In this document: positions 61,050 through 64,000 of the stretch, piece after piece
Layout: every line of letters begins with the position of its first letter
How positions within the stretch are numbered: the first letter of the stretch is position 1
NCBI GenBank assembly: GCA_015059335.1
Contig: SVAP01000001.1
Span: forward strand, 66,244 to 130,243
Origin: Bacillota bacterium
Lineage (GTDB): Bacteria > Bacillota_I > Bacilli_A > RF39 > UBA660
Direction: 5' to 3'
Length of the DNA: 64,000 nt
Position numbers and translations under genes: made by a program
Notes under the pieces: model-generated
What the model was told of the DNA's origin: nothing
Seen by the model: only the letters and a program-made list of their open reading frames with translations
Database searches by the model: none

Positions 61050-61138
61050 TCGACTTGCAAAAAGTGTCGAAAATCAAAAGTTTTGCAAGTTGACTTTCAA
61101 AACTTTTCAAATTATAAAAATTATAAGGAGGAATTTAC

Positions 61139-61534
61139 ATAAATACAGAAAATGATAAAAAGGAATTTAAATTTAAAGGAAAAGATTTATATCTTACTAT
61201 TACTCAATACCTAAATAATAATCGTCTTGCTATATTGTGTGAAACTAAAGATGATTTATATTGTGATTTAACAATTAATCTCTCTAATTCTCATATTTTT
61301 CCAATTAATATCAATGAAGCTCATATATCTGAAATATCTAAATCCTGTGGATTAGAAAAAGCATTATTAGATGCAGGAATTATTAAAGAGATTATTTGTA
61401 ATGAACAATATAATATGGGAAAATATGACTTTGTATCATTCGATATGGAAAAATTAAAAGAATATGATCCTGTTGGATTTGAAAAATATATGAATTCAGT
61501 TGAGTATGAAATAAAAAATATTCATAAAATATAA
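61139..61534 (+). CDS. hypothetical protein A (paralogue of next gene); start likely non-AUG
   Basis: reading frame open from 61127 with no ATG/GTG near SD TATAAGGAGGAATT; in-frame ATA 7 nt after AGGAGG; N-terminal extension is homologous to the paralogue, so it is coding. Confidence 0.45.
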   Translation: MNTENDKKEFKFKGKDLYLTITQYLNNNRLAILCETKDDLYCDLTINLSNSHIFPININEAHISEISKSCGLEKALLDAGIIKEIICNEQYNMGKYDFVSFDMEKLKEYDPVGFEKYMNSVEYEIKNIHKI

Positions 61535-61546
61535 GGAGGAATTATT

Positions 61547-61897
61547 ATAAAAAGAAAGAAAATTAGATTTAATAACAAAAACTATTTCATAGGAGTATAT
61601 ACATATGATAATAATAGACTTCGTTTAAAAATAGAAGCTAAAAAAGAAAGTCACGATATTACAATTGATTTAAAAGATTGTTATGTAGACAACAAACATA
61701 TTTTATTAGACCCTGTTGTAACTCAAAATGGATTATTAAAAATATTAAAGAAATCAAGAATAATAAAAGAGATAGTAAGTTCAACTAAATATGGTTATGT
61801 ATCAATACCTGTCGCAACAGTTAATATGGGAATTTTAAAACAATATGATTATGATGGTGTTATGAAGCACTTAAATAAATTCTATTTTGGTGGTTAA
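61547..61897 (+). CDS. hypothetical protein B (paralogue of A); start likely non-AUG
   Basis: identical leader TATAAGGAGGAATT; frame open directly after the stop of A; in-frame ATA 7 nt after AGGAGG; shared motifs NNRL, GLLKIL/IIKEI. Confidence 0.45.
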   Translation: MKRKKIRFNNKNYFIGVYTYDNNRLRLKIEAKKESHDITIDLKDCYVDNKHILLDPVVTQNGLLKILKKSRIIKEIVSSTKYGYVSIPVATVNMGILKQYDYDGVMKHLNKFYFGG

Positions 61898-62128
61898 ATG
61901 GATAGATTAAAATTGTATGATGATATACTAACTATTAGTATAAATAAAAAAGATAAAATAAAATTTAAAAGAATAGCATTCAAAAATAAAATGACAATGT
62001 CAGAATTTAGTAGACTACTAATTAAAACTGCAATATTAATCAATGATTTAGATAAAAAAGAAATAGATACAATAAAGTCTACTACACAAATTGATAATAT
62101 AATATCTACTATTAGGAGGGATTCCTAA
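61898..62128 (+). CDS. hypothetical small protein (76 aa)
   Basis: ATG start; stop TAA overlaps the putative ATT start of the VirB4-like gene. Confidence 0.45.
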   Translation: MDRLKLYDDILTISINKKDKIKFKRIAFKNKMTMSEFSRLLIKTAILINDLDKKEIDTIKSTTQIDNIISTIRRDS

Positions 62129-64000
62129 TTTTTTTATTTAAAAGAAAAAACAAAAAATTACCTAAAATAATAAATGATTTTATTCCATTCCAAGATGTTT
62201 GGAATAATACAGTATATTTAGAAAATAATAAAATTGTTGGTGGTTTAAAAATTAATTCAATAAATCTTTATTTGTTGTTTGATGAAGAACAAAAAATAAA
62301 GGTTAGTGAACTTAAAAAAGTATTAAATTCTATTGATTATCCAATAAAAATATTTAGTATAGACAAACCTATTAATCTAGATAATAACCTAAATATATTA
62401 AATTCAAAAATCAAAAATGAAGAAAACAAAAACAAATCAAAGCTATTAGAAGAAGATTACAAATTCATTGAAGATTTAAATAATAAAAAATCGGTAGTTA
62501 ATAGAGAGTTTTATTTAGTTATTGAAGAAACTGCAGATAATGAAAATATATTAAAACAAAAGATTAATGATTTAATACAAGAATTTACTGCTATGGGGTT
62601 ATCTAGTACTCAGATTACTAGTGAAGAATGGCGTGAACTTTTATATGTTGTTTTAAATCCTGTTAATTCGCTTGAAAATTTCAAAAAAGATGGTACAGGT
62701 ATTACAAGGTCATTTAAAGATAAAATTGCCCCAAATGGTCTTAAAATTGGCGAAAGAGATGTAATTCTTGGTGATGCTTATATAAGTGTTCTTACTTTAA
62801 GGTTATATCCATCAATTGTAGATTGTGGATGGTTAGGTACAGTTGCTAATGTTAATCATACTCGTATGGTTATGACTATTACTCCAATGGATACATTAGA
62901 GATTAGTAATACAATTAAAAAAAGTATTTCAGAAGTTAAATCAAAAATGATTAATGTTAATGATTACAATGACCAAATCATTTTAAATAATCAATTGCAA
63001 GATTATACAGAGTTAGTAAATAGAATTGACCGAGAACATGAAAGATTCTCATTATTAACGGTTAATTTTCTGTGTTATGGTGAAACTCTAGAACAACTAA
63101 ACAAAACTAAAAAAGAATTAAAAAATACTTTATCTGCCTATGGTATGGGTGGAGCTGATTTAATGTTTGATCAGGAAAGGTCACTAAAAATGTGTTTGCC
63201 TACAATGTATAGAGATTTAGAAAAAAGTTTTGGACTACCTATTCCAATGATGACTACTTCAGCATCTTTCCCATTTATATTTCAAAATTTACAAGATGAT
63301 GGGGATTCAATGATGATTGGTACAGATTCACTTGGTAGTTTACTATTCTTTGATTTGTGGAAAAGAACTAATAAAAGAAATAATTCCAATGCTGTTATTA
63401 TTGGAAAAAGTGGTAGTGGTAAATCTACTCTATTAAAAAAACTAATTCGAGGTAACTGGTGCAGAGGAAGTAAGATTATAGTAATTGACCCTGAACGTGA
63501 ATATAAACATCTGTGTGAAAACGTTGGAGGAACTTGGATTGATTGTGGTACTGGAACTGCAGGAATAATTAATCCATTAGAAGTAAGAAAAAGTTCTGTT
63601 GATGAAGATGGATTGTTAGATAAGAAAAATATTAATAATGATTTATCAAGACATTTTCAAACTTTTAGGACATTTATAAAATATTACTTACAAGATTTAA
63701 ATGCTTATGAATTAACCAAAATTGAAGAAATATTAATTGAGGTTTATAAAGAAAAAGGAATTGACTTTAATACAGATTTATCTAAATTTAAAAGTAGTGA
63801 CTATCCTATAATGGAAGATTTATATAAAAAAGTAAATCAAACATTAAAAGATTCAAAGAAAAATCATGTGTCGCCTAATGTAATTGAATCATTAGAAAAA
63901 TTAAATTCAATGTTAAAAAGAGCTACCATAGGTGCTGATGCAAGAATATTTAATGGACATTCAAGTATTAATGTAGATGAAAATACTGACTTTATTGTTT
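62128..64000 (+). CDS. VirB4/PrgJ/TcpF-like T4SS ATPase (5' partial relative to window: runs off the end)
   Basis: Walker A GKSGSGKST, followed by IIVIDPEREY (VirB4/TraG AAA-like DUF87 pattern); frame opens after TAG at 62113; SD AGGAGG then ATT at 62128 with no in-frame canonical start for about 50 codons. Confidence 0.75.
   Translation, partial: MFLFKRKNKKLPKIINDFIPFQDVWNNTVYLENNKIVGGLKINSINLYLLFDEEQKIKVSELKKVLNSIDYPIKIFSIDKPINLDNNLNILNSKIKNEENKNKSKLLEEDYKFIEDLNNKKSVVNREFYLVIEETADNENILKQKINDLIQEFTAMGLSSTQITSEEWRELLYVVLNPVNSLENFKKDGTGITRSFKDKIAPNGLKIGERDVILGDAYISVLTLRLYPSIVDCGWLGTVANVNHTRMVMTITPMDTLEISNTIKKSISEVKSKMINVNDYNDQIILNNQLQDYTELVNRIDREHERFSLLTVNFLCYGETLEQLNKTKKELKNTLSAYGMGGADLMFDQERSLKMCLPTMYRDLEKSFGLPIPMMTTSASFPFIFQNLQDDGDSMMIGTDSLGSLLFFDLWKRTNKRNNSNAVIIGKSGSGKSTLLKKLIRGNWCRGSKIIVIDPEREYKHLCENVGGTWIDCGTGTAGIINPLEVRKSSVDEDGLLDKKNINNDLSRHFQTFRTFIKYYLQDLNAYELTKIEEILIEVYKEKGIDFNTDLSKFKSSDYPIMEDLYKKVNQTLKDSKKNHVSPNVIESLEKLNSMLKRATIGADARIFNGHSSINVDENTDFIV

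Follow-up and report, generated by a model that had tools for sequence, protein, structure and literature searches.

How the channel genes of a conjugation system are translated when they appear to lack a conventional start codon is the question raised by one end of a 64,000-nucleotide stretch of DNA from a Bacillota bacterium (GTDB lineage Bacteria; Bacillota_I; Bacilli_A; RF39; UBA660; NCBI GenBank assembly GCA_015059335.1, contig SVAP01000001.1, positions 66,244 to 130,243 of the forward strand), the whole of which we call the window. The window has about 25% G+C and carries nearly all of its genes on the + strand, and between 59.4 and 64 kb it holds the core of a Gram-positive-type type IV secretion system (T4SS; conjugation) operon in the order sortase, TrbL_4 (VirB6-like), PrgI (VirB3-like), DUF4313 paralogs A and B, gene C and a VirB4-family ATPase. 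With a probability of roughly three in four, four of these genes (TrbL_4, both paralogs and VirB4) would start at AUA or AUU codons behind strong Shine-Dalgarno (SD) sequences, their translation being attenuated at the near-cognate codon and partly coupled to translation of the gene upstream. The features on which this reading is built are the following, with distances in nucleotides (nt) and protein lengths in amino acids (aa).

59400-59413, + strand: leader TATTAGGAGGAATT, with SD AGGAGG at 59404-59409; it overlaps the TAG stop of the sortase gene (59403-59405).
59419-60774, + strand: TrbL_4 (VirB6-like) channel gene; proposed start ATA 59419, 9 nt past the SD.
60774-61049, + strand: PrgI (VirB3-like) gene; canonical ATG overlapping the TrbL stop (TAATG).
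61122-61135, + strand: leader TATAAGGAGGAATT, first copy, with SD AGGAGG at 61126-61131.
61139-61534, + strand: DUF4313 paralog A, 131 aa; proposed ATA start 7 nt past the SD.
61530-61543, + strand: leader TATAAGGAGGAATT, second copy, with SD AGGAGG at 61534-61539; it contains the TAA stop of A (61532-61534).
61547-61897, + strand: DUF4313 paralog B, 116 aa; proposed ATA start 7 nt past the SD.
61898-62128, + strand: gene C, 76 aa; ATG start directly after the TAA of B.
62114-62120, + strand: SD AGGAGGG, inside the 3' end of gene C.
62128-64000 and beyond the window end, + strand: VirB4-family T4SS ATPase; proposed ATT start overlapping the TAA of gene C (TAATT).

The initial annotation of this DNA had drawn attention to three of these starts, and most of what it described is present. 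The two paralogs do share the identical leader TATAAGGAGGAATT, and each frame is open from the upstream stop, which is TAA 61124-61126 for A and the TAA of A itself for B. In both, ATA (61139 and 61547) lies exactly 7 nt past AGGAGG, but other near-cognate codons precede it in frame, where the ATA had been taken as the first plausible one: ATT occurs at 61133 in A, 1 nt past the SD, and at 61541 and 61544 in B, at 1 and 4 nt. None of these three ATT codons is conserved in orthologs, and all stand too near the SD. The VirB4 frame was said to open just after AGGAGG, whereas it opens inside the SD, after TAG 62113-62115; the ATT at 62128-62130 does share A62128 with the stop of gene C, and the reported lack of ATG, GTG or TTG for about 50 codons is accurate, the first canonical codon being TTG 62272 at codon 49. 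While all three cases are thus real, a fourth had been missed, that of TrbL_4, and the two paralog cases are not independent of each other, leader and start having been copied as a unit. The TrbL_4 start is preceded by a third copy of the leader (59400-59413); allowing at most one mismatch, TATAAGGAGGAATT occurs three times in the window against 0.07 expected by chance.

The four sites have much in common. The SD is perfect (AAGGAGG or AGGAGGG) at all of them, and its GGAGG core lies 7 (A), 7 (B), 8 (VirB4) and 9 nt (TrbL) from the ATA or ATT. The first ATG, GTG or TTG in frame comes only at codon 33 of A (TTG 61235), codon 94 of the 116 in B (ATG 61826), codon 49 of VirB4 and codon 22 of TrbL (ATG 59482), and none of these has an SD. 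Paralog B is consequently absent from a standard list of open reading frames (ORFs), there being no canonical start before its codon 94. Of seven consecutive genes, four would accordingly have near-cognate starts (three AUA and one AUU), and the canonical ATG of PrgI provides an internal control within the same operon.

Against the rest of the window this pattern is distinctive. When exact GGAGG sequences were counted that are followed, 5-10 nt on, by a codon opening a long ORF near the beginning of its frame, the region from 59.3 to 64 kb gave four near-cognate and no canonical starts, and the remainder, comprising phage-like DNA (1-35 kb) and other sequence of the element (35-59.3 kb), gave 12 canonical and no near-cognate starts (Fisher test on this split, by our own calculation, ~5e-4). 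Similarly, among some 85 + strand open frames of at least 70 codons, only A, B and VirB4 are real genes with more than 22 codons before a canonical start. A long start-less frame at 41370-41585 was considered and set aside, as it reads as intergenic sequence and not as a gene; the surrounding intergenic region (41370-41660) contains a terminator-like hairpin, gaaaagtgcaataatgcacttttc with T's behind it, and a promoter-like sequence of the TTGATATAAT type. Another long start-less frame lies at 463-684.

Could the real starts simply be the downstream canonical codons, TTG 61235, ATG 61826, TTG 62272 and ATG 59482, with the frames upstream of them left untranslated? Gene callers choose such codons, and several VirB4 orthologs have an in-frame ATG at "PKT-M-LDF". 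The sequence downstream of the ATA and ATT codons is nevertheless coding, as the initial annotation had maintained for the paralogs from their homologous N-termini, and this is shown by Pfam coverage, third-position bias, N-terminal conservation and a predicted strand in B. Specifically, the Pfam family DUF4313 (PF14190) matches A at 36 bits against a cut-off of 27 over residues 19-119, beginning before the TTG at codon 33. Residues 9-48 of VirB4 are strongly conserved (five orthologs), and over its codons 17-48 the differences from the window in 28 distinct ortholog sequences number 173, 96 and 354 at codon positions 1, 2 and 3, compared with 218, 48 and 369 in a downstream control block of the same gene. 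Residues 4-22 of TrbL, which precede its first ATG, align with the orthologs at loci L001 and L003, where the position of that ATG is occupied by Leu. An AlphaFold model of B (mean pLDDT 81) places a first beta-strand at residues 3-8; a Foldseek search of the model against the PDB gave no match below E = 0.3. Paralog B has no Pfam match at E ≤ 0.01 and so does not qualify as DUF4313 by profile; it is tied to A by tblastn paralogy only (~30% identity, E 1e-5 to 1e-7) together with the alignment. Downstream starts would further reduce B to 23 residues and strand strong SDs without a start codon, they lack SDs at all four codons, and their positions are not conserved, the homologs being truncated at many internal Met. 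We therefore regard them as very improbable.

These same codons have, however, shaped what is found in public databases. Public gene calls give TrbL 430 aa from an ATG, A 99 aa from a TTG and VirB4 743 aa from a TTG, cutting 21, 32 and 48 residues, respectively, and there is no call at all for paralog B (contig L049, 5637-6001). A homolog search with the VirB4 N-terminus returned 34 proteins, mostly fragmentary, and the VirB4 homologs (public clusters P0001-P0051) begin at differing internal Met residues (MLDFIPF, MDNNRIVGG, MHLLFDEEQ, MNSIDY and others), a scatter that is the signature of missed non-canonical starts. The omission of B and the truncations of 21-48 residues bias protein families, structure predictions and T4SS classification derived from such metagenome-assembled genomes (MAGs).

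Sequencing or assembly error, by which ATG would have been turned into ATA or ATT, had been left open as an explanation. It is excluded as the source of the ATA/ATA/ATT codons because contigs from three samples agree at all of these sites: contig L049 (JGI) is identical to the window over 8103 nt, and L050 and L051, from other samples, differ from it at one unrelated base. Moreover, at least 23 public contigs carry the element, with protein C unchanged in all 76 residues, and the same codons recur in 48 diverged loci from many studies. We give this explanation practically no weight.

Those 48 related loci, four from MAGs labelled uncultured Bacilli or Tenericutes (VirB4 identity 74-76%) and 44 from metagenomes (64-83%, mostly human gut), provide a further line of evidence. 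Ortholog starts were located by extending each tblastn match in the 5' direction as far as the in-frame stop and scoring candidates by SD and spacing, and counts are of distinct sequence contexts. Automatic scoring errs at weak-SD genes (PrgI and gene C) with an ATA directly before the ATG, and for these the alignments were read instead. For three of the genes the results were as follows.

Paralog B orthologs, 21 contexts: ATA 17, ATT 4, canonical 0.
TrbL_4 orthologs, 14 contexts: ATA 11, ATT 2, unclear 1 (L001/L003), canonical 0.
VirB4 orthologs, 24 contexts: ATA 14, ATT 3, CTG (or the next codon, ATT) 2, ACG 2, ATG 3.

The near-cognate codon is thus conserved among orthologs of B, TrbL and VirB4. 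The initial annotation had named orthologs with ATG at these positions as the finding that would speak against it; a canonical codon at the SD-spaced position in none of 21 B contexts and ATG in 3 of 24 VirB4 contexts favor its proposal instead. Its further suggestion that weak codons are used deliberately is supported, any intent being inferred from this conservation. Copy A is mixed (ATG, TTG, ATA and ATT), its L001/L003 ortholog having AGAGG, 7 nt and ATA. In B, orthologs of only 45-72% amino-acid identity keep a spacing of 7 nt ± 1 behind what is almost always AAGGAGG, and an in-frame stop falls between SD and ATA in several lineages (L005; the L007 group), so that no upstream start is usable there. 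The GGAGG core is matched at 5/5 positions in nearly all orthologs of the near-cognate genes, and the weak codon of VirB4 typically adjoins or overlaps the upstream stop (TAA-ATA, ATAG, ATAA). Orthologs keep the ATA while differing freely in spacer and second codon; given that ATA makes up 44% of Ile codons in the long ORFs of the window, the probability of at least 16 ATA in 19 is 3.8e-4, with relatedness ignored.

Some lineages depart from the common form. ACG stands at SD + 7 nt, with no ATN alternative in frame, in L030/L031 at ~3950 (VirB4) and in L034/L041 at ~3007 (DUF4313 copy A), where either ACG is used as the start or a downstream, SD-less ATG is. The commonest variant recovered from the human gut (L007-L018, L022, L043, L045 and L047, at ~3992) reads GGGAGGGATTTAA CTG ATT at the VirB4 start, which offers as the start either CTG, 6 nt past GGGAGGG (7 nt when counted from the GGAGG core), or ATT, another 3 nt along. 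At L042 (~3400-3420) the B ortholog seems frameshifted in an A-run just past its ATA GAT AAA start, which points to a pseudogene or to a homopolymer error of that assembly.

The most serious rival to selected attenuation is tolerance at the level of the lineage, in which start discrimination is relaxed in the host clade (near the Mollicutes/Erysipelotrichia part of the Bacilli), AUA or AUU behind a strong SD is almost neutral relative to AUG, and the codons drift under A+T pressure. Translation table 4 of NCBI lists ATA, ATT and ATC as starts for Mollicutes, and one of the related MAGs is labelled Tenericutes. In gene C, PrgI and the M23 peptidase gene, ATA or ATT in some lineages is replaced by ATG, TTG or GTG at the same aligned codon in others (for example ATG AAT AAT AGA TTA vs. 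ATA AAT AAT AGA TTA), and an ATA/ATG toggle of this kind is seen in p104 as well; gene C starts with ATA in about one third of its orthologs. The possible ACG and CTG starts described above would fit the same explanation. Across the related loci, GGAGG-led contexts comprise 74 near-cognate starts (63 ATA, 9 ATT, 2 CTG) and 22 canonical ones, and 17 of the 74, all ATA starts, belong to genes outside the operon families. The near-cognate habit therefore extends beyond the four genes and belongs to the element family or to the mobile DNA of its hosts.

The 17 additional contexts have a perfect GGAGG and ATA as sole start candidate, and among the genes that they precede are small accessory genes and one for a membrane protein of ~390-500 aa (examples are at L004 100-130 and 490-510, L001 12397 and L004 8180). 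Downstream of MobL, at L049 11825-11845, a ATTGGAGGAATT leader is followed by ATA at 7 nt and ATG at 10 nt, and the start is ambiguous.

Three observations count against lineage-wide tolerance and lead us to consider it unlikely. All 12 of the other GGAGG-led genes in the window use ATG, GTG or TTG. Toggling at the neighboring genes shows that the step from ATA to ATG, a single transition, is mutationally accessible, and its absence from the 21 contexts of B and the 14 of TrbL consequently argues for constraint. Finally, ATA codons go with stronger SDs, which implies that the codon is weak: in gene C, lineages with ATA match 4-5 of the five GGAGG positions (mostly 5) and those with ATG mostly 3-4, as would fit a weak codon in need of a strong SD.

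Several points nonetheless weigh against our preferred reading of attenuated near-cognate starts. Given the ATT codons that lie between SD and ATA in the window, the exact start triplet there depends on spacing and conservation. In 6 of the 21 B contexts a canonical ATG, GTG or TTG is found two codons before the ATA, 1 nt past the SD, and most database homologs of B begin M-x-I-R-R-K, that is, at this canonical codon; in these six contexts the ATA could be an ordinary Ile codon. We judge a codon 1 nt past AGGAGG to be probably unusable on steric grounds, and the ATA is still conserved in those lineages. The TrbL ortholog of L001/L003, its frame read upstream, is without a well-spaced start codon of any kind. 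The free interchange of ATA and ATG at other genes, together with the 17 further ATA contexts, means that the pattern could in part reflect a lineage that tolerates AUA rather than selected attenuation. Furthermore, the ortholog contexts are not phylogenetically independent.

Upstream of the same TrbL orthologs, at L001 1148-1172 and L003 1581-1605, GGGAGGAATTA precedes a mini-ORF in another frame, ATG TTT TAG. A frameshift from this mini-ORF into TrbL was considered and rejected, as the frame relation differs between lineages.

What, then, would such starts accomplish? In the mechanism that we favor, the initiator fMet-tRNA would pair with AUA or AUU through a third-position mismatch disfavored by initiation factor 3 (IF3), and the strong SD, at a spacing typical of Firmicutes, would hold either a 30S subunit or a ribosome newly terminated on the gene upstream over the weak codon, giving low but reliable initiation. 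The upstream stop lies inside the SD for B (TAAGGAGG) and TrbL (TAGGAGG) and overlaps the start for VirB4 (TAATT), with stop-to-start distances of 12 nt, 13 nt and a 1-nt overlap, respectively; A begins 89 nt past the stop of PrgI. Where the stop is inside the SD or overlaps the start, ribosomes finishing the upstream gene are likely the main source of initiation, and initiation would be largely coupled to translation of the preceding gene by termination-reinitiation. Channel components would then be made at a reduced level and in fixed ratios, possibly in dependence on IF3 or growth state. Such reduced or conditional translation would offer an integrated element a means of limiting what conjugation costs.

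Another reading is that fusion proteins are made, by readthrough of TAA 61532 (A-B) or by a -1 shift (C-VirB4). In the window B does follow in frame with A right after its TAA (61532-61549, TAA GGA GGA ATT ATT ATA), the L002 ortholog of B is in frame with PrgI after a TGA, and frameshifting is known to be stimulated by SD-like sequences close before a stop, as in prfB. The arrangement is not maintained, however: the frames of B and A differ in L001/L003, VirB4 lies in the -1 frame without a slippery heptamer, and L002, L005, L042 and L036 have an independent VirB4 ATG at the same place. The conserved feature is instead an SD-to-codon spacing of 7-9 nt, as expected for initiation, and we consider fusions hardly credible.

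A bolder reading, which we offer tentatively, is that AUA is the default start of the core channel and many accessory genes in this family of conjugative elements from gut Bacilli, either as a translational gate or as the routine fourth start codon of the clade. As a gate it would keep the transfer machine nearly silent until stringency drops, whether through low IF3, a change in growth state or an element-encoded factor. If either form is true, a sizeable proteome is systematically unannotated or truncated in the MAGs of this clade. Independently of this, four AUA/AUU starts in one operon, kept across dozens of diverged elements, constitute a natural test bed for weighing SD strength, spacing and coupling against a weak codon.

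The setting of these genes can be described more fully. The operon is carried by an integrated element whose host is a walled, uncultured bacterium of the gut with ~25% G+C, and NCBI labels on the related MAGs are Bacilli or Tenericutes. A sortase and an LPXTG-type adhesin lie upstream of the operon core, and an M23 peptidase and a MobL relaxase downstream of VirB4. TrbL_4 matches PF19597 at 70.2 bits (gathering cut-off 27, Pfam). The VirB4 gene is complete in contig L049, with 791 codons, and its product matches PF19044 (P-loop_TraG) at 41 bits (cut-off 25.8), PF01935 (DUF87) at 39.3 (23.2) and PF12846 (AAA_10) at 32.2 (27.5); these P-loop NTPase domains, together with the T4SS neighborhood, identify it as a predicted VirB4/TraC-type T4SS ATPase. 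Pfam gave no match for gene C, and a reading of its sequence suggests a possible ribbon-helix-helix fold. One further feature lies between PrgI and paralog A.

61050-61093, + strand: 13-bp hairpin TCGACTTGCAAAA...TTTTGCAAGTTGA.

This hairpin (-17.8 kcal/mol, z -2.9) stands directly 3' of the PrgI stop and 45 nt before the start of A; it is without a T-run, no terminator was called there and it has no Rfam match. Possible roles for it are those of attenuator, operator or RNA-stability element. A promoter and terminator scan of 59.3-62.3 kb did no better than on shuffled sequence, and an Rfam search of 58-64 kb returned no match. Likewise, megablast of 59.4-64 kb against plasmid and phage collections and tblastn of A and B against the plasmid collection found no match, and tblastn of VirB4 against the latter gave a single remote match (23% identity over 54% of the query). 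Between the phage-like half of the window, with an endolysin at 31.8 kb and a MazF-like gene at 32.6 kb, and the conjugative-element half, with a helix-turn-helix regulator at 36.0 kb, lies a tRNA-Trp (CCA) gene (35162-35235) that is likely an integration hot spot for one or both elements. The DnaB-like gene of the phage-like part has matches only on contigs of less than 2 kb.

In its gene order the operon resembles pCF10 (prgH-prgI-prgJ), ICEBs1 and Tn916, in which a VirB6-like protein, a PrgI/VirB3-like protein, a VirB4 ATPase and a cell-wall hydrolase follow one another. The sortase and LPXTG-type adhesin upstream and the MobL relaxase downstream are points of resemblance as well. It differs from them in the two DUF4313 genes and the 76-aa gene inserted between PrgI and VirB4, and in its start codons, and the plasmid collection contained no close relative of it. 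For translational coupling, the relevant models are overlapping or adjacent stop-start pairs such as ATGA and TAATG, at which termination is followed by reinitiation (Huber et al. 2019, PMC6728339), a process that needs initiator tRNA and is sensitive to IF3 (Yoo and RajBhandary 2008, PMC2268962). VirB4, with TAATT in the window and ATAG or ATAA in orthologs, and TrbL, with the upstream stop inside or just before the start region, resemble such pairs, and the same operon has a classical TAATG at TrbL-PrgI. Here, in contrast, the restart codon is near-cognate and not AUG or GUG, and paralog A lies well past the PrgI stop.

Natural AUA and AUU starts are regarded as very rare. In Escherichia coli these codons support initiation at 1-2% of the AUG level, and the natural cases confirmed there are limited to infC and pcnB (Hecht et al., bioRxiv 10.1101/063800). 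The genes described here share with infC and pcnB, which use AUU, a near-cognate AUN codon that would limit expression, with IF3 discrimination as the assumed control point; they differ in belonging to another phylum and in the predominance of AUA over AUU, and we claim for them neither autoregulation nor a link to IF3. In Staphylococcus aureus, which provides the closest validated precedent, retapamulin ribosome profiling (Ribo-Ret) has mapped four, namely AUA starts in infC, ccpN and citZ and an AUU start in cvfC1, all with extended SDs and, in reporters, with initiation below that of AUG; the AUA of ccpN and its SD are conserved in Bacillus subtilis (Kohl et al., Nat Commun 2026, PMC13009471). 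In that work each gene is the only such case in its operon, is a chromosomal regulator or metabolic gene and has had its start mapped experimentally, whereas here four adjacent genes of one mobile-element operon, known from sequence alone, have the weak codon next to the upstream stop or overlapping it. In other respects the two sets agree, coming from the same bacterial class, with AUA or AUU at an SD-defined position, a strong SD, Firmicute-type spacing and a conserved weak codon, and the expected effect is likewise lowered initiation. The mechanism class (a near-cognate start with a strong SD in Bacilli) and the gene families VirB4, TrbL_4, PrgI and DUF4313 are thus already known; in the literature searched we found no paper linking non-canonical starts with conjugation genes. 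What is new in comparison with these systems is the density of such starts, at four of seven genes, the near-fixation of ATA over diverged elements, its pairing with an adjacent upstream stop, and the gap that it has left in annotation.

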